The notes under the pieces were generated by a model. The model made no database searches, was not told the origin of the DNA, and saw only the letters and a list, made by a program, of their open reading frames with translations. Shown piece after piece: positions 5,502-61,295 of a DNA stretch of 64,000 nt. The position numbers and the translations under genes are program-made. Position 1 is the first letter of the stretch. Every line of letters begins with the position of its first letter. Source of the DNA: a virus (lineage: Duplodnaviria; Caudoviricetes); IMG/VR virus record IMGVR_UViG_3300014732_000001, positions 1-64,000 of that record; one strand, 5' to 3'.

Positions 5502-6002
5502 CTAAAACGGTAATCCTTCTTCATCGTCCCAACTCGGAGCTGGAATGTAATTCTTTTGTGGGACAGGCTTTTTAGCTACTTTCTTATCAAGTTTAGTAGA
5601 ACCAATTATATTTGTCCTGAAAGATTCCACAATCTTACCCTCTTTATCAAGAATGGCAAGATTTAATTCTCTGTCAAAGATGTAGGAATTACTTCGATGG
5701 TTGAATGACATTTTACCTTTCACCGACAAATAGCCGCAGTCAGCAAGAAGCTTAATAGCTTTGCCGACAGTCTTACGCACGACACAACAAGCAGTTGCTA
5801 TGTCTTCTTGGTTATCAAAATAGCCATTACCTTGTCCTTTGAAGAACTTCCATCTATCAAGCATATAATGAAAGACAAGCTTCTGCACATCAGGGAACTT
5901 CTCATATTCTCCTGTGTTTAGGTTTAGAATGTGTGTCGCTTTGGTGACATTATGGTATGTCGGAAAATAACTGTCAACTGTTGTTTGGTCTGTTTTGTTC
6001 AT
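5502..6002 (-). CDS. RepA_N-like winged-HTH protein, cassette copy 1
   Basis: 'KLVFHYMLDR..FF...QEDIA..C...KTVGKAI' matches the two paralogs at 30878 and 60801; ends WDDEEGLPF. Confidence 0.7.
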   Translation of the reverse strand: MNKTDQTTVDSYFPTYHNVTKATHILNLNTGEYEKFPDVQKLVFHYMLDRWKFFKGQGNGYFDNQEDIATACCVVRKTVGKAIKLLADCGYLSVKGKMSFNHRSNSYIFDRELNLAILDKEGKIVESFRTNIIGSTKLDKKVAKKPVPQKNYIPAPSWDDEEGLPF

Positions 6003-6156
6003 CCGTTTGTTTTCCTTCTTTAAGTGAGGGTATGAAAATAGATTTATGAAGACTGCCGATAATGATATTCAGTGTGTGGGCTGTGCTTGTGTGACCATAG
6101 TATTCCATGATTTCAAGCAACTCCTTGCCAGCACGGTCTGAGATATTAGTTCGCAT
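5974..6156 (-). CDS. Small ribbon-helix-helix-like protein, cassette copy 1
   Basis: 60 aa from ATG 6156 with GGAGG RBS; strand-helix-helix pattern 'MRTNISDRAGKELLEIMEYYGHTSTAHTLNIII'. Confidence 0.55.
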   Translation of the reverse strand: MRTNISDRAGKELLEIMEYYGHTSTAHTLNIIIGSLHKSIFIPSLKEGKQTDEQNRPNNS

Positions 6157-6169
6157 TTTATCCTCCCAA

Positions 6170-6450
6170 TGTAACTTTAATTCCAGCCGGAGTAACCCAA
6201 ATACCCCTACCACTGGGAACCATAGTTACAATAGTAAAAATGATGTTATTAAAAATGATAGAAACAAAAATGAATAAAGGGCATTAAAAGCCTGTTTCTT
6301 TTATCTCATTTTCTTATCCTCCATTGTTCGCTACGCTCACACTTAACTCCGTATTGGTGCTAAGCTTTTAGAGGTCAAAGACCGATATACATTTGTTTGT
6401 GCAAAGCGTAGCTTATATGAAAAATAATGGCAATGGGTAAATGGGTTACA
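6170..6450. repeat. Iteron-like 17-bp imperfect repeats and conserved core, cassette copy 1
   Basis: TGGGAACCATAGTTACA (6214-6230), TGGGTAAATGGGTTACA (6434-6450), inverted copies near 6170-6186 and 6191-6208; core 6351-6394 nearly identical to 60494-60537. Confidence 0.7.
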
Positions 6451-6463
6451 CCGGGGTTGTTAG

Positions 6464-6880
6464 TTAGGTAACCTCTTCTTGAAGGGTCGCTTCAAGACGT
6501 TCAACGGTAGCCTTTAGGTACTCATTCTCTTTCTTCAGACTTGTGTTAGTATCTTGCAGCTTCTTCAGTTGTTCCTTAACACTCAGCAACGTCTCCATTG
6601 GGAGCGCTTCATAATTCTTCAGAACATCATCACTTTCACCAGCAGAGATAATAAGGTCTGGTTTAACTTCATTGTAACCATCACTACCTTTAAACTTAAT
6701 ATGCTTACCCACCGTTAGGATACTCTCAAGTTCAACCTCTGTTGCACCGTAGTAGTCACTCTTGACAGCGACGATGTTGTTCTCCACCATCTTGAGCATA
6801 TCCTGAACATACTCCACGTTGTCGGTAGTCAGGTTGATGATCAGATCAGTAGCACCGTTTGTTTTAATTTGCATCAGCAT
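6464..6880 (-). CDS. Hypothetical protein with C-terminal coiled coil
   Basis: 138 aa ORF, GGAGG RBS. Confidence 0.75.
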   Translation of the reverse strand: MLMQIKTNGATDLIINLTTDNVEYVQDMLKMVENNIVAVKSDYYGATEVELESILTVGKHIKFKGSDGYNEVKPDLIISAGESDDVLKNYEALPMETLLSVKEQLKKLQDTNTSLKKENEYLKATVERLEATLQEEVT

Positions 6881-6982
6881 AATACATCTCCTCCAAGATT
6901 TAATTTAGATGCCGGGCACTACTCCGGCTGAGTGCATTTTACGATCAGTGTTGCTTGAAAGGCAAGCCTTCATTGCATTTTA

Positions 6983-7231
6983 TTACTCTCCCAAATACTC
7001 GCGAAGATTATCAAAGCCGCCAATATACCCCATCTCATTTCCATTCACAACGAAGCATTGAGGGAATGTGCGTGGGCGTGGTAGGCCCATACTGTCTGTC
7101 ACTTCAAACAGTTCATCTACCTCGTAATCTTTGCCGAGCTTTTTGTATTCCAAATCAAAACCTTTCATTGCAAGCAGATGACAGGCTTGGAGGCAAGCAC
7201 TACAACCATCTTTACCATAAACAAGGTACAT
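6983..7231 (-). CDS. Glutaredoxin (RNR reductant)
   Basis: 'YGKDGCSAC' CxxC and 'TFPQCF' cis-Pro motif; downstream of nrdA. Confidence 0.88.
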   Translation of the reverse strand: MYLVYGKDGCSACLQACHLLAMKGFDLEYKKLGKDYEVDELFEVTDSMGLPRPRTFPQCFVVNGNEMGYIGGFDNLREYLGE

Positions 7232-7245
7232 ACTTTCTCCTCTTT

Positions 7246-7268
7246 AAAAGGAGGGGCTTTCGCCCCTC
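7246..7268 (-). terminator. Terminator-like hairpin after nrdA
   Basis: GAGGGGC-GAAA-GCCCCTC then CTTTT on the minus strand. Confidence 0.7.
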
Positions 7269-8160
7269 ATTGACAACTCTCACACTCTGCTTTGTCGTTA
7301 GACGCTTGAACACCAGCTTTGCTGTAGATGTAGTATAGACCAAGAATGTCTTCACTCTCAATAGCATATTGATGTACACGGGCGATAACAGCTTCGTCTT
7401 CTCCGGCAGCAAAGAAGAGGTTTAGTGATTGCCACTGATCCAGAAATTTACCACGGGCTTCTGCTTGTTGCAAGATAGCCATCTGATTAATTTCAAAAGC
7501 AGTTTTAAACACCTCTTTCTCCTCTTGTGTCAACCACGACACACCCTGCACGCTACCCATTGCCTCACGAACTTCAGCAATATTAGCTTTGCTATACACA
7601 CCCTTTTCCTTCATAAGGCGGAGTAGGTGCGGGTTTACACGATCCACCTCGCCACCAGCACTTCGCTGTGTGTACACCATCGCTGTATCTGGGTTGATGC
7701 CTTCACTCACACCACCCATAATCAAAGCCGTGCTCTTAGTTGGTGCTACAGCGAGGAGGTGACTATTAGCCCGTCCATAGCCTTTACACCACTCCGGCTC
7801 ACCCCACTGCTCAGCACTCCAAGCTGTTGCTTTCTCTGCTTCTGCCCGAATGTACCTAAACAGCTCAATGTTTAGCAAGTAAGCTTCGACACTTTCAAAA
7901 GCAATCATCTTCCGCTGGTAAAGCGAGGTGAGTCCACAAACACCAAGGCCCAAAGCACGAGATTTACGGGTAAACTCTACAGCCTTCTCCAAACCATGAA
8001 TATTCTTGGCCCGCTCAATAAACTCTTGAGCCACACAATCCAAGTATACTGTAGCTACAAACACGGCGTCTGTGCCCTTCCACTCATCATAAAGGTCGGC
8101 GTTCATAGAAGCCAGAACACAAGTGTAGGTGTAATCTGGTCCGCTGTGCAAGGTAATTTC
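7267..8160 (-). CDS. nrdA: Ribonucleotide reductase class Ia alpha, exon 2
   Basis: Begins GAA (catalytic Glu of NxCxE) right after intron omega-G; 'RALGLGVCGL', 'LLAVAPTKST', 'GLYY', C-terminal CxxC. Confidence 0.93.
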   Translation of the reverse strand, partial: EITLHSGPDYTYTCVLASMNADLYDEWKGTDAVFVATVYLDCVAQEFIERAKNIHGLEKAVEFTRKSRALGLGVCGLTSLYQRKMIAFESVEAYLLNIELFRYIRAEAEKATAWSAEQWGEPEWCKGYGRANSHLLAVAPTKSTALIMGGVSEGINPDTAMVYTQRSAGGEVDRVNPHLLRLMKEKGVYSKANIAEVREAMGSVQGVSWLTQEEKEVFKTAFEINQMAILQQAEARGKFLDQWQSLNLFFAAGEDEAVIARVHQYAIESEDILGLYYIYSKAGVQASNDKAECESCQ

Positions 8161-9359
8161 CAAAAGGTTGTAAACAAATACAACCCTTCCGACTATATCT
8201 TCATTTCAGTTTTGTACCGTAGGCAGTCTGGAAGATTGTCCTTAAACGGTTCAATAAAACACTTATAGAACATAACAGCGGAATCCATTGTACCTATTTT
8301 CAAATAATTATTTGAAACTGTTGTTGAGATTCCGTATGTTTTGAGTTCCTCTACCAAAGAACTCAAAACGAGACCATCTTGTACATACATCTGTACATAA
8401 TTATTACCTCGACCTGAAAGATCAAAGTTCAAATAACCGTCGTCCATGAAATACAAACACATGCCGAAGGGTGTGAGAGCCTTGACCAACTCATCTTTTG
8501 TTGCATTTTTAACCCACTCTGTAATTTTCGTAGGCAGTTTACGAGAGTACCACGTCACATATTCGTGTCCTTGCTTGTGTTTAAAGGTCTTCACACTACC
8601 TGCCGGATTTGTGTGCGGGAACGCTTTATTGAATAGAGCTGCTTTGTAGTAGACATAATCAGACTGACGAATACCATGACTTATAGTCAAAGCTTGCCTA
8701 TCACTACAGTAATGCCCATCGCCAAGAATCTGCGAGACCACCAGAGATTTGTTCTCATCAATTGTCGGATTATATTTAACCTCAAAAGTCTCCATCAGGC
8801 AAATCGCCCTCGCCCTTTCAAACGTAGACACACCAAAATGTTTATCAAACAAGCCAACGCGACGACTTTGACTGAGATTCAGAGTCTCCCACAAGTCTCC
8901 AACGCATTCCGAGAGAATGATTGCCTTGACCAACTCATTACGGGTAGGTTGAAGTATGGTGTTAACTTTCTCACTGACAGTCATGCCGTAGTAGCTCTTA
9001 AACCTTTTACAAAAGGCTACAGTCCCAATACCAAACTCAGCACAGGCCAGCGAGCAAAGACTATTTGACTTTACATCTTTATTTGTCTTAACTTGCGACA
9101 AGAACTCATCGCAAAAACTTTTAAAATCGGTAGATTTTACTTTCATGTTATGTCCTCCTAAGTGTACTAACAACTGAATGCTTCGTACATAGTCTGTGAA
9201 CCTTCCTCTTGGTAAGAGGCTCGGCTGCTGATTGTCCAACACGTTTTCTTTTCAAACCGTCACACTCACCGTTTCCAGTCATGTTGTGGTGAAAACATTT
9301 TAACAGAGTCCCAGCAATTCTCGAAGTTTTTATTTTAAAGTTGTGAAACCAAATTATCA
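8161..9359 (-). mobile_element. Group I intron in nrdA with ORF in loop L8
   Basis: Exon ends in U with P1 (GUUGUG/CACAAC); P AAUUGCUGGGA, Q AAUCAGCAG, R GUUCACAGACUA, S AAGAUAUAGUC, P9 hairpin, terminal G at 8161; splicing restores ...QLCN-EIT... Confidence 0.93.
8193..9146 (-). CDS. Intron-encoded LAGLIDADG homing endonuclease
   Basis: ATG 9146 after AGGAGG; two motifs 'VSQILGDGHY' and 'CLYFMDDGYL'. Confidence 0.85.
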   Translation of the reverse strand: MKVKSTDFKSFCDEFLSQVKTNKDVKSNSLCSLACAEFGIGTVAFCKRFKSYYGMTVSEKVNTILQPTRNELVKAIILSECVGDLWETLNLSQSRRVGLFDKHFGVSTFERARAICLMETFEVKYNPTIDENKSLVVSQILGDGHYCSDRQALTISHGIRQSDYVYYKAALFNKAFPHTNPAGSVKTFKHKQGHEYVTWYSRKLPTKITEWVKNATKDELVKALTPFGMCLYFMDDGYLNFDLSGRGNNYVQMYVQDGLVLSSLVEELKTYGISTTVSNNYLKIGTMDSAVMFYKCFIEPFKDNLPDCLRYKTEMKI

Positions 9360-10163
9360 ATTACACAACTGAGCTGCTTTTACATCAAGGTTGTGGTCCT
9401 TATACCATTGAGGACGCTTGCGATTCGCCTTGTCTGGGAAGAATAGATATCCTTTACCAGTCACCATCTTAGTCTTCAAAGCTTTCTTGAATCGATAATG
9501 AGCTTCTTCATCACCTTCCCGCATTTTCTCTGTGTCGCTATCATGCCAGTTCCACCCGATATTATTACCGTCAGGGTGTTGTTCCAGATACGCACATACT
9601 TCGTGGAAATCTCCATGGCTGATCGGCAGATAGCCCGCCCAAGAACCTCTACGAGCAGTTCCTTGTGCCACATATTCCATGTCTGCTTGCATACCCATAA
9701 TAACAGGCATTACGCCAACAGATTTCCCACCAGCACTAATCTGACTACCACGGGGACGGATATCTCCGAGATAACCTGCTGTACCAAAACCATACTTTGT
9801 TAGGATTGCAGTTTCATGTTTAGCACGATAAATACCATCAATACTATCGGGAAAGTAACTACCGGCACATGACACAGGCAAGCCACGAGTGGTCCCACAA
9901 TTAGCCAGAATTGGTGTGCTAGGACTTAGCCAACCCTTCCACATAATGTCAAAAAACTTATCCTTCCACACGGCAGGATCAGGTGTGTGAGCTGCCAAAG
10001 TGTTAGCAATACGTTGATATTGCTCTTTAGGGTTAGCAGCCTGATACAGATATTTCTCTTTAAAAAGCTGCCAGCTCCCTGTGCTCCAATGGAGAGGCAT
10101 AAGCCCCTCCGCTTGTAGTTTCTTACGCTCTTCGCTGAGCTTATCATAAATACCACTAGACAA
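9360..10163 (-). CDS. nrdA: Ribonucleotide reductase class Ia alpha, exon 1
   Basis: 'LSPSTPILAN.G..RGLPVSC', 'RRGSWAGYL', ends 'AAQLCN' at the splice site. Confidence 0.93.
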
Positions 10164-11159: not shown

Positions 11160-11185
11160 TTTATCCTCCTCAAAATTCTTTTCTA

Positions 11186-19578: not shown

Positions 19579-20286
19579 CTAGAACGGAATCGAGTCGTCG
19601 AAGCTATCAAAGTCTGGAGCAGGTTCAGCTTCCTTCTTAGCCTCCGGAACCGCTTTGGGCTTCTCTTCTTGTTGCACTTCTTCTTGCTTGCTCTCCACTT
19701 TCTTCACTTTGTAGCTAACACCAAGCACATCATCATCTACACTATCAGCGGCTGCTTTCTGCTCATAAGCTACATGTTCCAGCACTTGAACAGTGTCAAG
19801 AGTGACAACAACCTGACCTTCTTGGTTGCGGTAACCAAACAGTTTCAGTGTGCAGACAGAACCGTTACCAACATTCTCAGTGAAAGGCTTACCGTCTTTG
19901 TCAATTACGTTGACAGTCATAGGATTACCTTTCTTGCTGAACTCAGGCTTAGCTACAGTGAAGCCATACATACCCTCAACAGCGTCATAATTTACCTTAC
20001 CTTCTTCGGTTTGAGAAGATAGTGGGTATTTGATTCGACGTGGCGGCTTAGAAGTCTTATCCTTGCCAACAAGAGCAAAAGTCTTATTCACCATCACTTC
20101 ATCAAGCAGTTTGTCTTTGGTTTCCTCATCAACAAACACCGTTACACTATATTCCCGATCCTCAGACTGATACTTCTTCTTAGGCTCGTGAAGCACCGGA
20201 TAGAAGACAGTTGCGTCTTTGATGTACAGGTTTACAGTTTCCAGAGAACCAGTTTTAGGCAGGTCACGGAGTACGATACTAGTCAT
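19579..20286 (-). CDS. Single-stranded DNA-binding protein
   Basis: T7 gp2.5-like OB pattern ('VGNGS.C.LK'), acidic tail ending FDDSIPF, own promoter. Confidence 0.8.
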   Translation of the reverse strand: MTSIVLRDLPKTGSLETVNLYIKDATVFYPVLHEPKKKYQSEDREYSVTVFVDEETKDKLLDEVMVNKTFALVGKDKTSKPPRRIKYPLSSQTEEGKVNYDAVEGMYGFTVAKPEFSKKGNPMTVNVIDKDGKPFTENVGNGSVCTLKLFGYRNQEGQVVVTLDTVQVLEHVAYEQKAAADSVDDDVLGVSYKVKKVESKQEEVQQEEKPKAVPEAKKEAEPAPDFDSFDDSIPF

Positions 20287-21495: not shown

Positions 21496-24400
21496 TTAGT
21501 GAATTTCAGCAGCATTTGCACCAACCTTATACTCTCCATCCAATTCTACCTGCATGTTCAGTACTTCTCCAGCTTTTTTAATGTAATCAACGATGAGTTG
21601 ACCAATCTCTTCAGCCACTTCCGGCTCTGCCTCAAAATCTCCTTGGTCATGGAAGGCCGCTAATCGCTTAACGACATGTCCCTTGTAATTGTAATAGGGA
21701 CGCCCCATTTCATCAATCTGTAGCCAGCCAAGCTTGTTGTCCATAAAGCAAAGAGCATATGTAATCACTGTAGCACCAAGACTCTGGCCACAAAGGTTTA
21801 CAAGCAAATGCTTAGACCGCACAGACAAAACACGGCCATCTTTGCCAACAATGTACTTCTTCTGACCAACACCTTCCCACTGCTTCTCCATCTCTTCCTT
21901 GAATTTCTTTAGGCCCTCGTTAGCATTCCAGTAATTTTCATATGCCACTTTACCGGCTTGCTCTGTCAAATCAAGGGACTTTGTAAACTTCTTAACCGAG
22001 GCTCCATAGGCCAGCGAATAAGCCCCGGTCTTAGCCTTGTTCCGCCAAGGCTTGAATTTAGGGTCATCTTTATCAAAATCTGGTGACTCGATATCAAACA
22101 TTGCCGTCTCTTTCGGAAAGAAGATTGTTGCATTGTATGAGTTACCGCTAACAAGAATCTTGCCTGCCCTTCGTACCACAATAAAAGTGCTTGGAACAGA
22201 AACACACCCAATCTTTCCTCTATAATGCTCTTTTTTCGCAACCGGGACGTTGACACCTTGCGTTTCTTTTGAAATGTAGCTCCTGTGTAATGTGCTCAGT
22301 CCAAACGGTGTTACTCGGTCTTTATATGTATTGTCCGTCACCTTAAACCCTGCAAGGATTGCTACTGTGCTTACAATGTCTCGGCTCTCTTTGCAAGTCG
22401 TATCGAACACAATAGCCCCGTGTCTGTTTACAGTTCCGTCCCACCTTGAAACCTCCTCTATGAAAACACGAGCCTCGTCAACACTCATGCTACAAAGGTT
22501 GCTTGTGAACTTCTTTTCAGAAGACAAATAGTTTTCCACAAACTTTACTTTATCTTTGTGGACAAAAAATCGAGAAGTCGTTCCACCCTTGCCGTTAGTC
22601 TCGTTCACGCAAATACCTAGTTGTTTGCAAAGTTCTCGGAACGCAACAATTTTCCTCTCCTTTGAAAACTCAAAACTGTAGCTTTTCCCGTTGAACCAGG
22701 AGTCTGCTTGAGCTGCAACAATAAACCCAATCTCTGCACAAGATAGACCAAGGCCCTCGGAGACAACTGTTCCGCTGTTGTGAAACCGGAGGCTGTTGTT
22801 AAATTTACCAACAAAATCTTTTGCGTACTTGACCCTCATCTTTTCCGGGCGGCGTGCATCAAAAAACATCATTCGGTGGTTGGGGGTTACGAGTAAGTCC
22901 ACGCTCTGATTTTTAAATGAGATCATCTCTCCTTCGTAGTCTTGCCAAACAATGTTCGTTGGTTCAACAAACTCGATTTTTCCGTTATTCCACTGACCAA
23001 CGAACTCCCCCACTTTCAACTCCCCGAAAGTTTTCCAGCCCGTAGGCGTAATAATTTCAGTGTCCTCGGAATAGCAGTGGCTATCTCCATTCAGCACCAG
23101 ATCAGCGAATTTACCATTATCATGCTTGAACGTGTAGTCAGCAACAGTTCTGTTCTCTAGCGCGGCGGCATCTGCTGATACATATTTCATACCTTTATCA
23201 ACAATGAACAAACTCCTCATCTCATAACCCTTCACAACTTCTGGTGACGCCTTGGGCAAGTTCGTAATACAAGAATGCTTCACTCGAAATGTTGGCGTGT
23301 ACCCAGAAATTTCAGCAGACAACCTCCCGTCAAACTCAAGTCTCCAGTTGTTCAACCACCCAGTGACCACACTTTTGCGGTTACGAAGCGAGAGGAAACG
23401 GACAATTCTCTTAGGTAACTCTCCATCGAGTTTCAAAAGGTTAGGGCAAATTTTACCACCTTCCTGAATCTTAGGACTTGTTGTAATCACCTCTCCTTTG
23501 GCATCCCGCATTGGCTTACCACGTTCGTCTCGCTTGAAGTTCCACATGCTTGGCTTCCATGAGCGCTGCATAAACCACTCTTTAATATCATCGCCATCCT
23601 TAATCTCCATAGGAAGCTGGATATCCAAAAGCTGACCACCAATTATGTCGTAGTCTTTCCCATAGAACTCCCATTTTCCGTTTTCTTTCTGAACCCCTTC
23701 GTGCTTTTCAATCCACTTTTCCATGATAGCAGACAGAGTACCATCCTTACGGTACGGCTTTTGCGGCATACTGTAGAGCTTTTTTTCGCCCTCTTTTAGT
23801 TTTCGTGGCGGAAGCTGAGGCAGCACTTCACGCTCAATCTCCTCCATCTCCACATCAATCTCTGCAATAAGCTTCTCTGCTGCTTTCTTATCGAACAAAA
23901 TGCCCGTGTAAGCTTGCGCAGAATACAAATAGTAATCTTTGTGCAGAGCCTTTGAGGCAGAGGCGAACGAGGCTCCAATCTTCGACATTTGGCCATACAT
24001 CTGCCCAGCCACTTTACGAAGGTGGTTGTATACATCAATTGTCAAAGCAACGTCTTGTTCACAATAAATCCGCATTTCTTCAGAGTACTTTGAAAAGTCG
24101 TGGAAATCAATTTTACTGTTATGTAGCTCCTCTCCCCAAGAGGCCAAGCTGTGTCGGGGACGATCAGGCGATAGAAATTGAGACAAAACATACAAATCTA
24201 CAATCTTGCATTTGTGCTTAAAATCTAGCCAATCGTTACCGCCTTTTCCAATATGAAAAGCAATATCCAAATGCTTCCACAACATCCAATGGTCGTATCC
24301 AATACCGTTATAGGACACAACTGTTGGGCAGTCGCCAAACGAGTTGTGCCAATCCATAAACAAACGCTTGCACTCTTCTTTACCTTGTCGAAACGGATAA

Positions 24401-24516
24401 AGACTCAGTTCTCGTTGTTTGTCTAGACTTTTGAAATGAATAATCCAAACTTTTTCCGACTGGAGGTAGAAATTATCTGCCTCCATGTCAAACGCATACC
24501 CACTAACTTCAGCCAT
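21496..24516 (-). CDS. polA: Family A DNA polymerase containing an intein
   Basis: Exo 'FDMEAD', 'YCEQDV'; motif A 'SADAAALENR'; motif B 'RNKAKTGAYSLAYG' (Tyr at the Klenow-762 position); motif C 'FHDQ'. Confidence 0.93.
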   Translation of the reverse strand: MAEVSGYAFDMEADNFYLQSEKVWIIHFKSLDKQRELSLYPFRQGKEECKRLFMDWHNSFGDCPTVVSYNGIGYDHWMLWKHLDIAFHIGKGGNDWLDFKHKCKIVDLYVLSQFLSPDRPRHSLASWGEELHNSKIDFHDFSKYSEEMRIYCEQDVALTIDVYNHLRKVAGQMYGQMSKIGASFASASKALHKDYYLYSAQAYTGILFDKKAAEKLIAEIDVEMEEIEREVLPQLPPRKLKEGEKKLYSMPQKPYRKDGTLSAIMEKWIEKHEGVQKENGKWEFYGKDYDIIGGQLLDIQLPMEIKDGDDIKEWFMQRSWKPSMWNFKRDERGKPMRDAKGEVITTSPKIQEGGKICPNLLKLDGELPKRIVRFLSLRNRKSVVTGWLNNWRLEFDGRLSAEISGYTPTFRVKHSCITNLPKASPEVVKGYEMRSLFIVDKGMKYVSADAAALENRTVADYTFKHDNGKFADLVLNGDSHCYSEDTEIITPTGWKTFGELKVGEFVGQWNNGKIEFVEPTNIVWQDYEGEMISFKNQSVDLLVTPNHRMMFFDARRPEKMRVKYAKDFVGKFNNSLRFHNSGTVVSEGLGLSCAEIGFIVAAQADSWFNGKSYSFEFSKERKIVAFRELCKQLGICVNETNGKGGTTSRFFVHKDKVKFVENYLSSEKKFTSNLCSMSVDEARVFIEEVSRWDGTVNRHGAIVFDTTCKESRDIVSTVAILAGFKVTDNTYKDRVTPFGLSTLHRSYISKETQGVNVPVAKKEHYRGKIGCVSVPSTFIVVRRAGKILVSGNSYNATIFFPKETAMFDIESPDFDKDDPKFKPWRNKAKTGAYSLAYGASVKKFTKSLDLTEQAGKVAYENYWNANEGLKKFKEEMEKQWEGVGQKKYIVGKDGRVLSVRSKHLLVNLCGQSLGATVITYALCFMDNKLGWLQIDEMGRPYYNYKGHVVKRLAAFHDQGDFEAEPEVAEEIGQLIVDYIKKAGEVLNMQVELDGEYKVGANAAEIH
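22141..23076 (-). mobile_element. Intein (312 aa) with LAGLIDADG domain in DNA polymerase
   Basis: DSH|CYSEDTEIITPTGW...LLVTPNHRM...VSVPSTFIVVRRAGKILVSGN|SYN; blocks 'AAQADS' and 'SRWDG'. Confidence 0.92.
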
Positions 24517-24576: not shown

Positions 24577-26256
24577 TTAAAAGTTCATAGCTTTTGATTC
24601 TGGATAGTAAATCCACCCTTCGTCATCAGGAACAACGTGAAGCCTCCCATCTTCAAGCTGAAGCATCGTGTCACAAACCCCTAGCTCTCCCCATTCTCTG
24701 TCCTTGAGGATTTTGGTTCGAACGCGGCCACGGGTTTCATCTGGTAACACCTCGTTCTCAAGAGCAACAATACAGCTGCTCATTTGTTCAATCCCGGATG
24801 AGCCGCGAAGAAATTCCTTCCGTACTTGTCTCCAGTAGGCTTTAGGCTCTTCACCTTCTTTAAGTCTAGGCCCGTTATCTTCAACACGCTTAAGGTGACA
24901 AACGGCATGAATAGTTACTTCATTGTTTGTCATAAAAGCTGCCAGCTCTTCATAAAGCATGTCGATATCTTTACGTTCGTTGTTGCTCTCCAAGCCCGCC
25001 ACTACCATTGAAATGTGGTCAATAAAGATGTGTTCACACCCGCAAATAAAGTGCAAATACTTAATCTGCTGCATAAGCTTGTCTACTTTCATAGAACCAA
25101 AGTGGTCCAAGAAGTAGGTTTTACCGTTTGAGATAACCTTATCCTTGGCTTCAAGGATTTGTTCTCGTGTAGCAACAGACAAGGGATTTTTTCGGAAATC
25201 TGGTAGACGAACACCAAGCTCCAAAGCAACCAAGGACTGTTGTGTCTTCTTAGTTGGCTCTTCTAGGAAGATAAAACCCACCTTGTATCCAGCAGCAACC
25301 AACTCCCATGCAATTTCACGATTTAGCGTCGATTTACCCACTCCACTAAATGCAGTGTAGGTGATTAGTTCGTTACCTGTTCGAATTCCGTGAAGCTTTT
25401 CCATAAGCTTAGGGTATCGCTCAATATAATGCCCTTCACGCAACGGTTCAAGCAAAGAATCAATATCGACATCATCACCGCAAATAATCTTCTCTGGGCT
25501 ATATTTCTCCAGCCCGAAAGCTAGAATCTTGCCAAGTTCTGAAGCATAGCCTTGCAATACACAATCACGGGCATCCTTTAGGTTATGCGGGTGTGTGATT
25601 GTGTAAATATTATCGGACAATAGAAGACTTGCTACTTCTTCTTTTGCTTCCTTCCCCTTAAGGATATTCTTCTTAAGCTCCTTGAGTGTTGCAGAATCTG
25701 AGTCAAATGCAAGAACAATGTCAGAAAAGGATTGAACAAATTCAAGGTTATGCGCCACTGACTCTGCTGCATTTGCTGTCCCCATTGAAATAGACACAAC
25801 GCTTGGTTCAATCTTTCCTTCATACTTAGTTCCACGAAGGCTTTCAAGGATTGCTCGGCGGGTTGCCGGAACCTCTTCCTCTCCTTCAACAATAATCAGC
25901 TTACGACCACCCTTCGGGGTTTGTGGCTGGCCAAACATCTGGGCATTAATCTTCACTGTACCAACCACAGTAAAATGAAAATCGTGGTCTTTTGGAACCG
26001 TCCAATCTCGCTTTTTAAATCCAGTCAATTCTCCCGACTTGCTGTAGTACGGGAAATAGGTGGCTTCAATTGTCTTACCGTCTTTGGTGCTGACACAAGA
26101 TCGAATCTCATAAAATTCTGCATCTTCTTTAGTCAGCCCACGTTCAGGTACTGGTAGGCACTTGTACTTAAGAACATCTTCCAAGCTCTCTTTAGCAAAA
26201 ACACTCTCACTTTCTCGCATCTTATCTCCTCGTTTGTATTTTCGTTGATATGTCAC
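24577..26256 (-). CDS. T7 gp4-like primase/helicase without an N-terminal Zn-binding domain
   Basis: TOPRIM 'IVEGE', 'AFDSD', 'KDARD'; Walker A 'AFSGVGKST'; 'FIDHIS'; 'LRGSSGIEQ'. Confidence 0.9.
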   Translation of the reverse strand: MTYQRKYKRGDKMRESESVFAKESLEDVLKYKCLPVPERGLTKEDAEFYEIRSCVSTKDGKTIEATYFPYYSKSGELTGFKKRDWTVPKDHDFHFTVVGTVKINAQMFGQPQTPKGGRKLIIVEGEEEVPATRRAILESLRGTKYEGKIEPSVVSISMGTANAAESVAHNLEFVQSFSDIVLAFDSDSATLKELKKNILKGKEAKEEVASLLLSDNIYTITHPHNLKDARDCVLQGYASELGKILAFGLEKYSPEKIICGDDVDIDSLLEPLREGHYIERYPKLMEKLHGIRTGNELITYTAFSGVGKSTLNREIAWELVAAGYKVGFIFLEEPTKKTQQSLVALELGVRLPDFRKNPLSVATREQILEAKDKVISNGKTYFLDHFGSMKVDKLMQQIKYLHFICGCEHIFIDHISMVVAGLESNNERKDIDMLYEELAAFMTNNEVTIHAVCHLKRVEDNGPRLKEGEEPKAYWRQVRKEFLRGSSGIEQMSSCIVALENEVLPDETRGRVRTKILKDREWGELGVCDTMLQLEDGRLHVVPDDEGWIYYPESKAMNF

Positions 26257-30370: not shown

Positions 30371-30399
30371 TTGACATTTAGAGGAGGAGGGTGGAGAAT
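30371..30399 (+). promoter_or_regulatory. Promoter heading cassette copy 2
   Basis: TTGACA-N17 (G-rich)-GAGAAT. Confidence 0.5.
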
Positions 30400-30419
30400 T
30401 GGTGGTAGGGAAGAAAAGG

Positions 30420-30671
30420 TATGGGACTGAAAATCTCCCTATATAGGATCAAAAATCCTACACGTATGGGATCAGAAGTCTCTTTATCAAGATAGAGTAA
30501 TAAGATAGAAAGAACAAAAACGAATAAATAATGAAAGCATCGTGCAAGCACGACAGGTCGTAGACCAAATGAAAGCTTGTGTATCTGGCTTTTATCTTTT
30601 ATTATTTTTGTGTGCAAAGAGCGTAAGCGAAGAAAAGAAATACGAAAGGTATAGGATCGTAAGTCCCATAC
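30420..30671 (+). repeat. Iteron-like 21-bp repeats and hairpin core, cassette copy 2
   Basis: TATGGGACTGAAAATCTCC (30420), TATAGGATCAAAAATCCTA (30442), TATGGGATCAGAAGTCTCT (30465), TATAGGATCGTAAGTCCCA (30650); GGTC-GTA-GACC at 30556. Confidence 0.78.
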
Positions 30672-30696: not shown

Positions 30697-30822
30697 ATGA
30701 CAAACCTAATTGTACCCCGTGACCTTCTGCGTTGGATCGATGAAAATCGTGGAAGCCTGAGTCGTCAGAGCTATATTATAAAATGCCTGTTCAAACTCAA
30801 GGAGGTTAGCGAGATGAAGTAG
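30697..30822 (+). CDS. Small ribbon-helix-helix (CopG/Arc-like) protein, cassette copy 2
   Basis: 41 aa MTNLIVPRDLLRWIDENRGSLSRQSYIIKCLF..., AGGAG RBS; paralog of 60630-60752; absent from track. Confidence 0.7.
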   Translation: MTNLIVPRDLLRWIDENRGSLSRQSYIIKCLFKLKEVSEMK

Positions 30823-30877: not shown

Positions 30878-31354
30878 ATGAAAGAGGAAACATTTTACAA
30901 AATACCAAAATCTCTGATGAAAGCAACTGGATACTACAGCTTAGAGAACGGGAATCCTGTTATCCTTACGATAGCAGCGAAGCTTGTCTACACCTATATG
31001 CTGGACAGGCTTGTGTTTTTCGTAGATAAGCAGAAAGGGCAACATTTTGAGTCACAGCAAACAATTGCTGATGCTTGTGGTTTGGAATATAAGGTGGTAG
31101 GTAAAATCCTGCGTCAATTTATGGATAATGGGGTTGTTTTTGGTAAGAAGCTGCGTCCGAATGGCAGAGGTCAGTGGCGTTGGCATTACACTAAAATCGA
31201 AACAGGTCTTGACTTCTGGCAAGGTTCTTCAGAAAATCCTGTCAGGGTTGGGAAAGATTTTGTTGAACACAAAGCTACTATTCCAGTACAAACAAAGAAA
31301 AATCTTGACAGCCCACCATCTTGGGTGGATGATGAAGAAGGATTACCATTTTAG
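30878..31354 (+). CDS. RepA_N-like winged-HTH protein, cassette copy 2
   Basis: 'FYKIPKSLM...LTIAAKLVYTYMLDR' parallels RepA_N 'FY.LPK.L..LS..AK..Y..L.DR'; ends DDEEGLPF. Confidence 0.72.
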   Translation: MKEETFYKIPKSLMKATGYYSLENGNPVILTIAAKLVYTYMLDRLVFFVDKQKGQHFESQQTIADACGLEYKVVGKILRQFMDNGVVFGKKLRPNGRGQWRWHYTKIETGLDFWQGSSENPVRVGKDFVEHKATIPVQTKKNLDSPPSWVDDEEGLPF

Positions 31355-31367
31355 GAGGATTTTACCT

Positions 31368-32129
31368 ATGAACTTGAAAGAATATATGCAAATGAAGTAC
31401 CCAAATAGCAAGAAAAAGCACCTGAACTCTATTGAATTCGATATATTCGGTATCTTAGATCACAGTAAGGGTTGGTTCAAACGCAACGAGGGGTTGGAAC
31501 TTACACAAGAGCAAATTAATAAAGTCTATTTCCGTACAAGCAGTTTACGAGGAAGTAAGAAAAGCAAAACTCTCGCCCGAATTGCAAACGCCGTAAAAGA
31601 TTATGAAGTTACAGACAATAAATACGTTTACCTAATGAAAAACGCTAACGAGATGCTTAAAATTGGGATTTCCGTGGACCCAATCAGACGAGCCAGGAAC
31701 ATTTCAACATCCTCTGGTGTTCCTACGCATCTTGTGGCGTTCTGGAAAGTTGATCGTAGAGCGGTAGAGGTTGAATCAAAGCTTCTGAAACATTTCAAGC
31801 GGCGTTCAACCCTTGGTGAATGGTTCAGTCCAAATTCGTTCTCAATACAAGAAATCGAGGCTCAGATTGGGTGCAATTTTGAAAGAAAGTTTTTATTGGA
31901 GGATGTATATAAAAAGGTTGAGCGGAGCACAGAAAAACACAGCTATGAGCGGGTGAAATTTCAAACAACTAAGGCAAAGCTTTTTGTAATCCAAGGAATT
32001 GATGTATGGGTTCCAAAAGCTGTGATCGAGGTTGAGAAAGACGGTGAACTTGAAACTTCTGGAACATTCTTGTCCGAGAAGATTTCAGGCTTACTGAAAT
32101 GTCAAGATTATTTTAGTCAGGGTGTGTAG
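31368..32129 (+). CDS. GIY-YIG-related (T5orf172/MUG113-like) endonuclease
   Basis: 'YVYLMKN..LKIGIS.DP.RR...VESKL.KHF...GEWF'; start after AGGAGG overlapping upstream stop. Confidence 0.82.
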   Translation: MNLKEYMQMKYPNSKKKHLNSIEFDIFGILDHSKGWFKRNEGLELTQEQINKVYFRTSSLRGSKKSKTLARIANAVKDYEVTDNKYVYLMKNANEMLKIGISVDPIRRARNISTSSGVPTHLVAFWKVDRRAVEVESKLLKHFKRRSTLGEWFSPNSFSIQEIEAQIGCNFERKFLLEDVYKKVERSTEKHSYERVKFQTTKAKLFVIQGIDVWVPKAVIEVEKDGELETSGTFLSEKISGLLKCQDYFSQGV

Positions 32130-55725: not shown

Positions 55726-55728
55726 TCT

Positions 55729-56538: not shown

Positions 56539-56540
56539 TA

Positions 56541-57505: not shown

Positions 57506-57653
57506 TTCTTTTTCTCCTTACACAAAACTAATACTAATATGACTAAACACCCAAATCAAACTTTCAATGACTCCCCAACCAACGATGGCTGAAATGATGC
57601 AAGCCACGATAATAAAAGCTCCCGCAGCATCTGCTATGCCTTTTCCCCACATA

Positions 57654-57887
57654 TTAGTTCTCCTCCAAAATCAAATGATACAAATTCCTATCTTTGAGAA
57701 TCTTACTAAGCTTCATATTCTCTTCGATTAGCATTTTACGCTCTCCAATCGTAACTTGCAACAAAAACTCCAAGGTTTTTGTGTAGTTGCACATATTTAA
57801 ATCATCACGTAGAAGGATGCTCTGAATCGTACCAGACTGAGAGTGTGGGTCAAGCTGTTTGATGAAGTCAATCTGCTGCGTGTTCAA
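57654..57887 (-). CDS. Hypothetical protein
   Basis: 77 aa. Confidence 0.6.
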   Translation of the reverse strand: MNTQQIDFIKQLDPHSQSGTIQSILLRDDLNMCNYTKTLEFLLQVTIGERKMLIEENMKLSKILKDRNLYHLILEEN

Positions 57888-58105
57888 GAGTCTTTTCCTC
57901 GCCTGTATTCAAATTTAGCACCGTTGTTACAATAGGCAATTGCTTCCCCAGTAATATCAAAAGAATACCGCTTCATTCCGCCATTATATTTGCACTTTTC
58001 AACAGCAATCACCAGTTCTTTTTCATCTATATCTGCATTCAGATTAAGTGCCATCATCAGACCGATGACAGGTCCAATAACCAACCCTGCGAAAAAGTCA
58101 CTCAT
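57884..58105 (-). CDS. Membrane-anchored small protein
   Basis: MSDFFAGLVIG TM, then Cys pair. Confidence 0.62.
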   Translation of the reverse strand: MSDFFAGLVIGPVIGLMMALNLNADIDEKELVIAVEKCKYNGGMKRYSFDITGEAIAYCNNGAKFEYRRGKDS

Positions 58106-58234
58106 CCTTCTCATCTCCTCTCTTAATTTCATAAAGAAGCTTTATAAGCTCATCATCACGCCTTGTTCGTATTTCAATATGTCCATATAGCTTTAAGACA
58201 GCTTCAACTACAATTGCAAGCTTTTCCTCTTGTG

Positions 58235-58591
58235 TCAATTTACAAATTCTCCTGTTTTAATGGCTAACCACTTCGGTGTTGCACTAAACTCTAGTGCTTT
58301 TACAGTGAATAGGTGTTCAACAAAGCAAAAATCATCTGAGTAGTGAGCTTTAACATCTTCTGCTGACTTAAAGAACCCATCGAGCATCTTCACTACTTGA
58401 CAGTAGCACGTTTCCTGATTATTAATCAACACCCAACGATAGTATAGCGTGTTGTTCTCATGCAACCAACCAACGCCATCGCACAAACTGCAACGAATAG
58501 GCCCGATTGCATCATATCCGTGCTCTGCAAAGCCGTGATTGTAGAACCCCTCAATACCAGTACCAGAGCATTTGTAACACTCAATGTTCAT
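58235..58591 (-). CDS. DnaJ-type Zn-finger protein
   Basis: 'CYKCSGTG' and 'CSLCDGVG'. Confidence 0.65.
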   Translation of the reverse strand: MNIECYKCSGTGIEGFYNHGFAEHGYDAIGPIRCSLCDGVGWLHENNTLYYRWVLINNQETCYCQVVKMLDGFFKSAEDVKAHYSDDFCFVEHLFTVKALEFSATPKWLAIKTGEFVN

Positions 58592-58947
58592 TTCTTCTCC
58601 TTGTAATGTTCCAAGAACAACCCTACTTCTTCGACAGCACTCATCTGTGGGTTCATATTAGCAAGTTGTTTCAGTGTTGTGCAACCACAATCTGCAAGAT
58701 ATTCCTTGATATCCACTCCAAGATGCTTAGCAGCTCGCTTCAAATATTTAGTATCAGTGTTAGGAATATAACTGGCGGGCATACGCAGGCCATATTCTTT
58801 TGCCAATGAGCGATGGTAATTCTCATCTGCATAATTCTGACGAAGAGATTCACCAGCTTTCTTTTTCTCTTCACGTTTAGCTTTGGCCTTCTCAAGCATC
58901 AAAGCTCTGTCTTCTTGACTTATGTTTTTAAGGTAGTCTTTGTTCAT
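58588..58947 (-). CDS. Hypothetical protein
   Basis: Start refined to MNKDYL, GGAGGAG RBS. Confidence 0.72.
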   Translation of the reverse strand: MNKDYLKNISQEDRALMLEKAKAKREEKKKAGESLRQNYADENYHRSLAKEYGLRMPASYIPNTDTKYLKRAAKHLGVDIKEYLADCGCTTLKQLANMNPQMSAVEEVGLFLEHYKEKK

Positions 58948-59038
58948 ATTCTCCTCCGTTCGCAAGTGTTTCGGGGTGAAACCGTAGCGTTGATTTACAC
59001 CCCTATTTTTAACGCTAAAGATGGCCTTTCAGGTTATC

Positions 59039-59476
59039 TCAGACCCAATCTACAGACGTAATTGTATCGGCTACAGCAGGAACAATATCTTTTGTCTCTA
59101 CATCTCCAGAAACAGGGTCTGTTACAGTGACACGGAAGAAATCTGCACCACCGTAGCTGCTTCCGTATCCTGTCCCATCTAGACGCTCCAGCACAGCAGA
59201 GTATTTATCAAAGACAGCCTTAAGTTCATTCAGAAACAAGCGCATCGCATTTAGCTCTGGTTCCTCCGTTCCATCTGTAATAGCTTGCAGAGCTTGCTCG
59301 ACCCAACTGAGGACAGTACCCAGATTAACAAGAATTGCATCCATGGCGACATCCACATCGTCTGGAATTACAACACCCTCATCTTCTACCAAGCTGACTT
59401 TATCCATCATATCAAGCAGACCAGTACGCAGTGCTGTAGCATCAGCTTTAATTGAATTCAGTGTTTCAATTGTCAT
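59039..59476 (-). CDS. Hypothetical acidic protein
   Basis: 145 aa. Confidence 0.72.
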   Translation of the reverse strand: MTIETLNSIKADATALRTGLLDMMDKVSLVEDEGVVIPDDVDVAMDAILVNLGTVLSWVEQALQAITDGTEEPELNAMRLFLNELKAVFDKYSAVLERLDGTGYGSSYGGADFFRVTVTDPVSGDVETKDIVPAVADTITSVDWV

Positions 59477-59684
59477 TCGTTTTCTCCTTTACTCGTTCTT
59501 CTATCATAGACCAAACCTTTTCATATTCTGGCCAATCATTCTCGACTACTACACAGTCTATAGTCGGTAATGCGTAACCATCTGGTCCGCTCACGTTCAG
59601 CAGCTCATTAAGCCTGCTCAATTGTTTGTCGTCCAGCTTCGATATCTTAAATACTACATACCGCATTTCTCGTTTAAAACTCAT
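59466..59684 (-). CDS. Hypothetical protein
   Basis: 72 aa. Confidence 0.68.
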   Translation of the reverse strand: MSFKREMRYVVFKISKLDDKQLSRLNELLNVSGPDGYALPTIDCVVVENDWPEYEKVWSMIEERVKEKTNDN

Positions 59685-59836
59685 TTCAATTCCTCCAATG
59701 TCTTTTCAACAGGTGTTCCAACGATGTAGAGCCTCATTATGTCTGAGTATTCTTTCTGCGTCAAGGGGCGTTCAAGCTTTTCTTTTAGCTGCCTCAGATA
59801 CCACTCCCACCCGCCTTCTGTGAGATGTTCTTTCAT
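59681..59836 (-). CDS. Hypothetical protein
   Basis: Start refined to MKEHLT. Confidence 0.58.
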   Translation of the reverse strand: MKEHLTEGGWEWYLRQLKEKLERPLTQKEYSDIMRLYIVGTPVEKTLEELK

Positions 59837-60015
59837 TGGATAAACACCTCGTAAACACATTGATCCGTGTAAGGGTCCCACCGAATAATGTCTTGTTCTA
59901 CACTGGAACAGACACTCCACTTATCACCAAAATACGGATCATAACCATCGTAACAATTCACAACAGCTTCTTGATCCATCTCTTGCAGCTTTTCAATCAG
60001 TTCTTTCACTTTCAT
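59833..60015 (-). CDS. Hypothetical protein
   Basis: MKVKELIEKL, similar start to 47849-48100. Confidence 0.65.
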   Translation of the reverse strand: MKVKELIEKLQEMDQEAVVNCYDGYDPYFGDKWSVCSSVEQDIIRWDPYTDQCVYEVFIQ

Positions 60016-60197
60016 TTCAACCCACTCCTCTCCAGAAGGACTGCAATTGTCTCTTTCGTAAATTCACTGTCTGAATGGTGTCCAAACCATTCACAAGCGT
60101 TTACAACACCGAACTCACGAATCATATTCTCAAACACATCAGCAAAGCACTTAACCTCTACAGGAGGAATTGCTTTGGGTAGTCCGTAATCTTTCAT
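60012..60197 (-). CDS. Hypothetical protein
   Basis: MKDYGL start, AGGAG RBS. Confidence 0.62.
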   Translation of the reverse strand: MKDYGLPKAIPPVEVKCFADVFENMIREFGVVNACEWFGHHSDSEFTKETIAVLLERSGLK

Positions 60198-60230
60198 TTC
60201 AACTCTCCTCTTTATTGAACAGCTAGGAGA

Positions 60231-60325
60231 AGAATACATCCCCTTACTCCTGCACGTCAAGCAATTTCTTTAAGAAAATTTATTTGTTTTGTGTGTTGAC
60301 AGGAGGGGAGAGGTGGGGTTACTAT
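60231..60325. promoter_or_regulatory. Back-to-back sigma70 promoters at head of cassette copy 3
   Basis: Minus: TTGACG (60260)-N18-TATTCT; plus: TTGACA (60296)-N18-TACTAT. Confidence 0.62.
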
Positions 60326-60341
60326 TGGTCATCACTAGGTG

Positions 60342-60620
60342 ATGTGAAAATCTTTCCTACACCATGTGAACAACGTTCCTACATTTATAGGAACAAATGA
60401 CACAGTAGTAAGATAGAAAGAGAAAGATAGATTTAAGAAAGAGCTTTACTTATAGGAACAAAATTCCTATTCTTTTCTTTCTTGTATTTGGTTGTATCGG
60501 TGCTAGGCTTTTAGAGGTCGAAGACCGATATACATTTTGTTGGTGCAAGAAGCGAGAGCGAATTAGAAGAAAGATTGTTGTAGGAACAATTTTCCTATAT
60601 TGTGTGAACAATGATCATAC
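60342..60620 (+). repeat. Iteron-like 19-bp imperfect palindromes and conserved core, cassette copy 3
   Basis: Six copies at 60342, 60364, 60387, 60452 (perfect ATAGGAA-N5-TTCCTAT), 60580, 60602; core 60494-60560. Confidence 0.82.
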
Positions 60621-60629
60621 GGAGGTGTT

Positions 60630-60752
60630 ATGAACCTAAAGCTACCATTCTTGGTACTACAGTGGATTGATGACAATAGAGGGGGTAAGACACGCAAAGC
60701 ATTTATCGTAGATTGTTTAGTGATGTTGGTAAAAGAAAACAGGAAGCCTTAA
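60630..60752 (+). CDS. Small ribbon-helix-helix (CopG/Arc-like) protein, cassette copy 3
   Basis: 40 aa MNLKLPFLVLQWIDDNRGGKTRKAFIVDCLV..., GGAGG RBS; shares WID.NRG..R...I..CL with 30697-30822; absent from track. Confidence 0.7.
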   Translation: MNLKLPFLVLQWIDDNRGGKTRKAFIVDCLVMLVKENRKP

Positions 60753-60800
60753 AACTTTAATACTCAGGCTTACCGTAGAAAATCTAGTATGGAGGTAAGT

Positions 60801-61295
60801 ATGCAAGAAATAGATGAACAGTTTTACAAATTCCCTAAAATGCTGATGATGGCAGATGCTTATGTGAGCAGGAAAACGGGAGAGATTGTTAGGTTGACAG
60901 ACGCAGATAAGAATGTGTATGTTGTGATGAAAGCTCGTAACGAGTTCTTTGACAACCATTACGACAAGCAATCGGACATTGCAGAGATGTGTAACCTTAC
61001 AGTCAGGAAGGCCGGAGGGGCCATCCGTGAATTTACAAAACACGGTATCATTGAGAGCAGTAAGGTTTATTCAGGCGGAGAGCACAAGAATCTCAAGTAC
61101 ACCAAGATTCATTGCTTGGAGCTTCTAAGGGGCGAGGGTGAAGGAGGTAAACGGAAACACATACCAATAGGCGTTCTCCCAGAGACAATCTGGCAGAAGG
61201 TTGAGAAGAGGGCTGTTATGCCTAAGGTAGTACAACAGAAGAGTATTTATACACCAGCACCAAACTGGGACGACGAAGAAGGATTACCATTTTAG
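60801..61295 (+). CDS. RepA_N-like winged-HTH protein, cassette copy 3
   Basis: 'FYKFPKMLM..AYVS..G..V.LTDADKNVY'; ends WDDEEGLPF; start at 60801 after GGAGG. Confidence 0.72.
   Translation: MQEIDEQFYKFPKMLMMADAYVSRKTGEIVRLTDADKNVYVVMKARNEFFDNHYDKQSDIAEMCNLTVRKAGGAIREFTKHGIIESSKVYSGGEHKNLKYTKIHCLELLRGEGEGGKRKHIPIGVLPETIWQKVEKRAVMPKVVQQKSIYTPAPNWDDEEGLPF

Follow-up and report, generated by a model that had tools for sequence, protein, structure and literature searches.

Three repeat-bearing cassettes in a phage genome as candidate origin and initiator modules with an SSB-like C-terminal tip

The window analysed here, the first 64 kb (64,000 nucleotides) of the 90,460-bp IMG/VR virus record IMGVR_UViG_3300014732_000001, rated 100% complete, raises the question of why a lytic-type phage with a replication gene set of its own should carry three copies of what resembles a replicon module. 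The replication set is T7-like, comprising a family-A DNA polymerase, a gp4-like primase-helicase, a gp2.5-like protein that binds single-stranded DNA (SSB) and an exonuclease. The three paralogous cassettes are located at 5.5-6.46 kb on the minus strand (c1), and at 30.37-31.35 kb (c2) and 60.3-61.3 kb (c3) on the plus strand. Each consists of repeat-rich non-coding DNA, a small open reading frame (ORF), r, and a gene, w, for a winged helix-turn-helix (wHTH) protein. The original prediction for this DNA had described three cassettes of one layout, a description that holds for all three, and had read them as independent origin modules with initiators of the RepA_N type. To our knowledge, few origins or initiators have been described for large lytic phages whose replisome is T7-like. 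From the homology of the w proteins, the geometry of the repeats, their co-variation with w, the conservation of the w C-terminus and the pattern of copy numbers among relatives, we infer, with a probability of about one half, that the cassettes are origin and initiator modules of the RepA_N or PLE RepA kind and that an SSB-like tip on w recruits the replisome.

The three w proteins, w1 (166 aa, positions 5502-6002, minus strand), w2 (158 aa, 30878-31354, plus strand) and w3 (168 aa, 60789-61295, plus strand), are 28-36% identical in pairwise comparison. All end in W(V)DDEEGLPF, w1 and w3 with WDDEEGLPF and w2 with WVDDEEGLPF, in agreement with the paralogs of about 160 aa ending in DDEEGLPF that had been described earlier. 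Significant family matches of the w proteins are to DUF6945, HTH_36 and phrog_8102. With DUF6945 (PF22182, cut-off 28 bits), w1 reaches 43.4 bits, and w2 (22.9 bits) and w3 (21.8 bits) are individually sub-threshold. In PHROGs, the N-terminal parts match phrog_8102 and other 'replication initiation protein' families with E-values from 1e-12 to 6e-9. An AlphaFold (AF2) model of w1, built with 40 homologues (pLDDT 82), has a winged-helix domain at residues 10-130 and a low-confidence tail at residues 131-166 (pLDDT ~60). The Foldseek comparison that the original prediction had called for was run on this model, and its top match is an initiator domain, 4ro3 (E 4e-5). The same entry is the sole VIA match with a Z of at least 8 (Z 9.7 over 105 residues), and the w-family profile finds it among PDB sequences at E 5.3e-11. 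4RO3 is the N-terminal domain of RepA from the Vibrio cholerae satellite PLE (PMC7145576); the w winged-helix domain is a homologue of this domain of a validated initiator. PLE RepA binds to iterons that are semi-palindromic, and RepA plus the PLE ori suffice for replication during infection by ICP1, whose replisome is T7-like (PMC7145576). The RepA_N initiators 4pta, 4pql and 5kbj and the DnaB/DnaD-type N-terminal domains rank lower, at Z ~6.7-7.1 (4pta Z 6.7 over 100 residues), and Foldseek returns 4pql, 4pt7 and 5kbj at E 0.012-0.05. By exhaustive profile search, the w family comprises 733 clusters at 50% identity; relatives of 270-320 aa were found by the exhaustive search of representatives, an ordinary homologue search having given no longer ones.

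The non-coding modules contain repeated boxes, with a 17-bp form, TAGGNN-CAAAA-NNCCTA, that is semi-palindromic around an A-tract. There are five 17-bp boxes in the c3 module (60343-60620), at 60343-60359, 60365-60381, 60388-60404, 60453-60469 and 60581-60597, the last two being perfect copies of TAGGAA-N5-TTCCTA. The c2 module (30419-30671) has four boxes, at 30419-30442, 30444-30460, 30464-30487 and 30650-30671, of which the second is a perfect TAGGAT-CAAAA-ATCCTA. The c1 module (6157-6463) has two inverted 20-nt boxes (6187-6206 and 6435-6454) with a spacing of 228 bp. Within 300 bp, 7 copies of the c3 half-site TAGGAA/TTCCTA are present where 0.13 would be expected (P ~1e-10); the observed and expected numbers are 3 and 0.07 for the c2 half-site TAGGAT/ATCCTA, and 2 and 0.03 for the c1 half-site GTAACCC/GGGTTAC. 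Enrichment in the cassettes is 30-50-fold (P 1e-10 to 4e-4), and 11-fold (P 0.002) for a second c2 half-site. Perfect boxes are confined to their own cassette and occur nowhere else in the window. The arrays of imperfect palindromes noted earlier are confirmed. RepA_N iterons are typically semi-palindromic repeats in which inverted sub-repeats converge on a poly-A tract (PMC7145576), and the boxes have this geometry.

In c2 and c3, three boxes phased 22-25 bp apart are found just 3' of a good sigma70-type promoter, one further box lies mid-module, and another directly precedes the ribosome-binding site of the r gene. The promoter that reads into c2 is TTGACA-17-GAGAAT (30371-30399, plus strand), and that before c3 is TTGACA-18-TACTAT (60296-60325, plus strand). 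IMG/VR holds collinear relatives at ~80-97% nucleotide identity, and five complete genomes, this phage and the relatives G1 to G4, were compared. The c3 promoter was considered as a part of the cassette and rejected, as it belongs to backbone DNA common to relatives: homology to G2, at 97% identity, extends to 60329, and c3 starts just after the backbone promoter.

When seven cassettes of this phage and of IMG/VR relatives were aligned over their upstream regions, a common core of four elements emerged. These are an A-rich stretch with two to four GATAGA repeats, one every 13-14 bp; a hairpin, in many cases GGTC-GNA-GACC; GCTTTT with a T-run after it; and GTGCAA(A/G)AGCG-N-AGCG, which includes GC-GNA-GC mini-hairpins. 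In c1, the A-rich GATAGA stretch is at ~6232-6275, the hairpin core at 6351-6390 and GTGCAAAGCGTAGC at 6399-6412. In c2, GATAGA is found at 30491 and 30504, hairpins at 30539-30566, and the T-run with GTGCAAAGAGCGTAAGCG at 30587-30629. The corresponding c3 elements are GATAGA at 60412 and 60426, the hairpin core at 60494-60533 and GTGCAAGAAGCGAGAGCG at 60543-60560. The core motifs are confined to the cassettes in all five complete genomes. The shared hairpin core claimed in the original prediction is thus present, with motifs common to all cassettes and a 44-nt core that is 93% identical between c1 (6351-6394) and c3 (60494-60537), but the c1 module is inverted relative to its own r1-w1 genes. 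All three modules have the same plus-strand orientation, which could be chance, given three copies.

The 44-nt core of c1 is unlike the c1 core of G1 and G2, and the three w genes are near-identical over their final 28-34 nt, including synonymous positions, the stop codon and the AGGAGG for the next gene. Since the c1 hairpin matches c3 rather than G1 and G2, and the w 3' ends are near-identical, conversion between cassettes within this genome, perhaps recent, is suggested. The c1 non-coding blocks are ~100% conserved in G1 and G2, compared to 77-84% for the flanking genes and 36% identity for the adjacent small protein, which suggests that the c1 non-coding DNA is under selection.

Across relatives, the boxes vary together with the w proteins, and the core motifs do not change. 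The half-site reads TAGGAT in c2 and relative L005, TAGGAA in c3 and L008, TAGGAC in L007 and L010, TAGGTC in L009 and L012, and GGACA in Pseudomonas phage phiPMW. In the PLEs, the RepA_N domain co-varies with the ori and the C-terminal part is constant (PMC8263062). The box-reading protein could in principle be w or the product of the small ORF, which had been predicted as a ribbon-helix-helix (RHH)-like gene of 40-60 aa. A small ORF does precede each w gene: r1 (60 aa, 5974-6156, minus strand, overlapping the w1 start), r2 (41 aa, 30697-30822, plus strand) and r3 (40 aa, 60630-60752, plus strand). The RHH fold is backed by no search: the small proteins have no match in Pfam or NCBIfam, and the RHH alignments none among PDB sequences. 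The label is therefore putative, following a strand-helix-G-x-S/T-R-helix pattern and phrog_31326, a family without assigned function that both r2 and r3, clear homologues of each other, match. No link between r1-type and r2/r3-type proteins was found by hhalign; the r1 orthologue in G1 and G2 begins MQKVRVTLSEE. In distant phages, the RHH-like protein is better conserved (42-61% identity) than the wHTH domain (26-35%). The RHH N-terminal strand, MNLKLPF, is the same in cassette c3 and L007, the boxes are not, and the wHTH proteins of the two are only 38% identical; this comparison mildly favours the wHTH protein, rather than the RHH-like protein, as the reader of the boxes.

A further line of evidence is the C-terminus of w. 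In a 40-member alignment of the w family, the last proline is invariant and the terminal phenylalanine nearly so, preceded by acidic residues and usually by a tryptophan as well. Among 143 further representatives of 50%-identity clusters, a PF terminus is present in 60, and another 22 have an acidic stretch that finishes in an aromatic or hydrophobic terminus; the relatives of 270-320 aa likewise end in PF. Only four ORFs of more than 50 aa in this genome end in PF, namely w1, w2, w3 and the gp2.5-like SSB (19579-20286, minus strand), the C-terminus of which is DFDSFDDSIPF; the other four complete genomes show the same restriction of PF endings to the w proteins and the gp2.5-like SSB. The w proteins have the features of an SSB tip, with an acidic run and (I/L/x)PF at the extreme C-terminus after a predicted disordered linker. 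The bacterial SSB tip DDDIPF is described as recruiting many partner proteins (PMC5872125; PMC10018359). As the w tails match both this type of tip and the terminus of the phage SSB, we propose that w may display such a tip at a specific site in double-stranded DNA; initiators of this kind could thereby recruit replication machinery, a mechanism that can be tested. Compared to the tip of E. coli SSB (DDDIPF) and the tail of T7 gp2.5, w has the same acidic run and (I/L)PF-COOH after a disordered linker, but the tip is carried by a predicted sequence-specific double-strand DNA-binding domain and not by an OB fold. Complex prediction of the w1 tail (residues 125-166, with alignment) and the phage primase-helicase gave a score of 0.09, which is no evidence either way. 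It should be mentioned that an SSB of the OB-fold family PF00436 was also considered for this phage and has no match in the genome, the SSB being of the gp2.5 type instead. Other C-terminal peptides recur among relatives (P0050-P0192), such as DD(L/I)PEW and EYDDEFLxxIxF(G/E), and other partners may dock on these instead.

Under the proposed mechanism, each cassette would be a compact theta-type replicon module. Dimers of the wHTH protein would bind their own A-tract-centred 17-bp semi-palindromic boxes, with further boxes bracketing the core, and the bracketed core (GATAGA repeats, hairpin, T-run and GC-GNA-GC mini-hairpins) would provide the unwinding and loading region at which the origin fires. 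The ~40-residue disordered linker with its acidic-(L/I/G)PF-COOH tip would stand in for the classical RepA_N C-terminal domain. The tip would dock on readers of SSB tips, which may be the T7-like helicase-primase or polymerase or host SSB-interacting proteins, and docking would nucleate the replisome at a double-stranded site. The small RHH-like protein would autoregulate the operon. Cassette c1 would be the resident module of the clade, and c2 and c3 would be extra, exchangeable modules, gained at recombination hot spots rich in homing endonucleases. More tentatively, the acidic-PF tip might be the missing effector of phage RepA_N-like initiators, allowing site-specific assembly of a T7-like replisome without a helicase loader, with stackable private origins that spread as homing-endonuclease-linked cassettes; we consider this wider proposal possible and rather doubtful. 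If it is true, one phage can stack several private origins of different specificity. The PLE authors note that how RepA_N proteins start replication remains unknown (PMC7145576). A family of 733 clusters that joins a RepA-like domain to an SSB-type peptide offers a concrete recruitment mechanism, which a single mutation could test. With up to three specificity variants per genome, which replace each other and phrog_4756 genes at fixed sites, it is also a natural system for replicon modularity, for incompatibility and for the role of homing endonucleases in exchange.

The comparison with PLE RepA and its ori is the closest. In addition to the homologous N-terminal winged-helix domain, both systems have semi-palindromic A-tract repeats, in both the DNA-binding domain and its sites vary together while the C-terminal end is constant, and PLE works, as the cassettes would work, with a T7-like phage replisome. 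On the other hand, the cassette genes are in the phage itself and not in a satellite, w is half the size of PLE RepA and has a disordered linker with an SSB-like PF tip in place of a folded C-terminal domain, and w is preceded by a small RHH-like gene and present in up to three diverged copies. The Firmicutes RepA_N plasmid initiators (pSK41, pTZ2162; PF06970) may share the N-terminal fold class, and they have the same style of tandem iterons with inverted sub-repeats around a poly-A tract. They differ in that w is below the Pfam RepA_N cut-off, that the carrier here is a Gram-negative-type phage, and that w has no genus-specific C-terminal domain; a folded, host-specific domain of the RepA_N type is absent from these proteins of 158-168 aa, in which residues 131-166 are predicted to be disordered. 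A copG-repB operon also has a small gene followed by an initiator gene with repeats upstream, but RepB is a rolling-circle HUH nuclease unrelated to w, and the RHH fold is here only putative.

The same layout is found in cultured phages, which makes experiments feasible now. In Pseudomonas phage phiPMW, gp115 (136 aa, 40% identical), annotated as a replication initiation protein, is located at a divergent switch, with three GGACA-AAA-TGTCC boxes and four GATAGA repeats upstream; the phiPMW authors put the GC-skew origin ~2 kb away from gp115 (PMC5587285). Rheinheimera phage Barba is represented by 109 genome records, each with one cassette copy, in the order box array, GATAGA repeats, box, hairpin, T-run and box. 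The repeats are followed by an unannotated 36-aa RHH-like ORF and a 172-aa wHTH protein annotated as 'putative replication protein O'. In Barba 12-9G (L040:1000-1500), the repeat module is annotated as two hypothetical genes on the opposite strand, and the deposited record lacks the 36-aa RHH-like ORF (1350-1460). A megablast search with cassette c2 against the phage collection gave no match.

Copy numbers were determined by local hmmsearch over six-frame translations of the five complete genomes, a survey that the original prediction had also proposed. There are three copies in this phage, two in G1, and one each in G2, G3 and G4, and never zero. Cassette c1 is common to this phage, G1 and G2, with w1 94-95% identical at the amino acid level, and the sole cassette of G3 and of G4 is at the c3 site.

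Several observations weigh against the reading of the cassettes as origins with RepA-type initiators. Pfam RepA_N (PF06970, gathering cut-off 30 bits) reaches 16.4 bits with w2 and 16.7 bits with w3 (E ~0.007-0.009) and gives no match to w1, so that the RepA_N signature of the original prediction survives as homology to the PLE RepA N-terminal domain and as iteron geometry, and not as a Pfam assignment. Generic wHTH regulators reach Z 6-8 in the VIA comparison, the same as the RepA_N structures. The acidic w tail could be an intramolecular DNA mimic, as in T7 gp2.5, and not a recruiting peptide. The boxes lie a short way downstream of strong promoters and a short way upstream of the ribosome-binding site of the RHH-like gene, as operators also do. 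Gene orientation and GC skew flip near 4.8, 30.3, 41 and 60.3 kb, and c2, c3 and phiPMW gp115 are located at divergent strand switches and GC-skew minima (PMC5587285), positions that would suit origins. The minima at 30 and 60 kb were discarded as evidence for origins, since they coincide with gene-orientation switches and add little, and c1 is not located at a strand switch. Homing endonuclease genes adjoin c2 and c3, and the selfish origin elements that the original prediction gave as an alternative may apply to these two. Finally, c2 and c3 are missing in very close relatives (G2 has only c1, and G1 is without c2), and because they are absent in near-identical relatives they are dispensable, accessory elements. 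For the earlier claim of three independent origin modules, the initiator homology, the co-variation of boxes and proteins and the presence of at least one cassette in every complete relative speak in support, and the absence of c2 and c3 from very close relatives weakens it.

This last point leads to the main rival for c2 and c3, where it overlaps with the favoured reading: the cassettes may be selfish exchangeable modules that travel with homing endonucleases and are exchanged by recombination in shared flanks, with the backbone promoter as left flank and the conserved stretch encoding the tip, together with the endonuclease gene, as right flank, any origin or initiator activity serving competition in co-infection (private origins, incompatibility) and not normal replication. 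The presence or absence of c2 and c3 among phages with flanks 80-97% identical fits this explanation. So does the c3 site of G1, where the cassette encodes a protein 38% identical to w3 despite 98% identity of the flanks. Each of the three cassettes adjoins an HNH or T5orf172 gene, with an HNH gene past w1, a T5orf172 gene past w2 and a T5orf172 remnant past w3. The cassettes have also displaced a gene of the phrog_4756 family, C-terminal remnants of which persist in this phage, G1 and L005. In G2, the c3 site is occupied by an intact phrog_4756 gene of 453 aa, and a paralogue of 422 aa occupies the c2 site. In this phage, a chimeric ORF at 61667-62272 (plus strand) consists of a T5orf172-like N-terminal piece and the last ~145 aa of phrog_4756 and marks where c3 displaced the gene; analogous remnants are fused to HNH or methyltransferase genes in G1 and L005. 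The near-identical w gene ends and the 44-nt match between c1 and c3 point to intragenomic conversion. Published work describes nuclease genes located where exchanged regions begin or end, chimeras of RepA_N and T5orf172 such as Odn, and modular RepA_N/ori swapping (10.1101/2023.03.23.533998; PMC8263062), and the exchange pattern of the cassettes fits these descriptions. However, at least one cassette is kept in every complete genome, c1 and its non-coding blocks are stably conserved, and the single-copy architecture in the 109 Barba genomes and phiPMW argues for a core function of at least one copy. As an explanation of the cassettes, selfishness is rather unlikely.

Improbable, in our judgement, is that the w and r proteins are ordinary transcription regulators, forming a repressor and operator set that gates strong promoters at the heads of rightward operons, the repeats being operators and the tail having some other role. 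The position of the boxes, at roughly +20 to +90 relative to predicted sigma70 promoters and immediately ahead of the ribosome-binding site of the RHH-like gene, would suit such a set, palindromes suit dimeric repressors, and many wHTH regulators appear at Z 6-8 in the fold search. But there are no perfect boxes elsewhere in the window and therefore no regulon, and the closest homologue is an initiator. The repressor-operator explanation is further disfavoured because the ~150 bp conserved core between boxes would be superfluous for an operator, because the c1 module is inverted relative to its genes, with no backbone promoter before c1, and because the family-wide SSB-like tip, shared only with the phage SSB, is left unexplained. 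Very improbable is that the proteins are weapons or decoys in phage-satellite conflict, targeting a satellite origin alone or with the adjacent T5orf172/HNH nuclease as ICP1 Odn (RepA_N with T5orf172) cuts the PLE ori (PMC8263062): the homology to a satellite initiator domain, the T5orf172 gene directly downstream of w2 with its remnant after w3, and the T5orf172-wHTH fusion of the metagenomic relative P0023 speak for it, but it is hard to square with cognate boxes in cis, at which a guided nuclease would cut the phage itself, nor does it account for the HNH gene, not T5orf172, at c1 or for the SSB-like tip.

In the cassettes as in ICP1 Odn, T5orf172 accompanies a RepA-like DNA-binding domain and specificity modules are exchanged; the two differ in that protein and nuclease are here separate genes in different frames, with target sites in cis in the phage genome, a single polypeptide being seen only in P0023. 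The HNH homing endonuclease directly after w1 (4868-5524, minus strand) likely starts at the GTG that closely follows an AGGAGG overlapping the w1 stop. The T5orf172/MUG113 (GIY-YIG-type) endonuclease after w2 (31332-32129, plus strand) likely starts at ATG 31368, after the AGGAGG that overlaps the w2 stop. With these better starts, the N-terminus MKKDY(H/R)FRR that the downstream endonucleases seemed to share was rejected as probably an artefact of ORF calling. All three w genes end in CC(A/G)-TTT-TAG-GAGG (31340-31370, 61280-61306 and 5485-5530). It is purely speculative that a +1 slip at UUU-UAG would enter the HNH frame in c1 or the T5orf172 frame in c2 and give an Odn-like fusion; past w3, the +1 frame closes after six codons.

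The phrog_4756 proteins are a family of 420-455 aa, common in this group of 88-92 kb phages, which fills the c2 and c3 sites where there is no cassette; the two genes of G2 are located at L019:1689-3050 and L020:12851-14119, both on the minus strand. The family has no Pfam, NCBIfam or PDB sequence match, and hhalign found no relation between it and the wHTH family. Its invariant E-x-D-F..H, R-x3-K and H-D-S are presumably similar to the A, B and C motifs found in family-A polymerases and in RNA polymerases of the T7 type.

Among the other genes of the phage, the family-A DNA polymerase (21496-24516, minus strand, 1006 aa) is interrupted by an intein-like insertion of ~330 aa, which starts with CYSEDTE after ...NGDSH and ends with ...VSGN before SYNATIFF. 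The gp4-like primase-helicase is at 24577-26256. The final ~70 nt of the 90,460-bp record duplicate its first bases, which marks the assembly as circular or terminally redundant, although it is classed as linear in IMG/VR. A tyrosine integrase was looked for in the phage and none was found. A 138-aa coiled-coil-like ORF (6464-6880, minus strand) lies between c1 and a glutaredoxin-like gene and is missing there in G1 and G2. The phage also codes for ribonucleotide reductase, thymidylate synthase and many HNH endonucleases. The large subunit of the ribonucleotide reductase is broken into two ORFs (9357-10163 and 7267-8163, minus strand) with an unassigned 349-aa ORF (8193-9242) between them, a split that is probably due to an intron or to insertion of a homing endonuclease.

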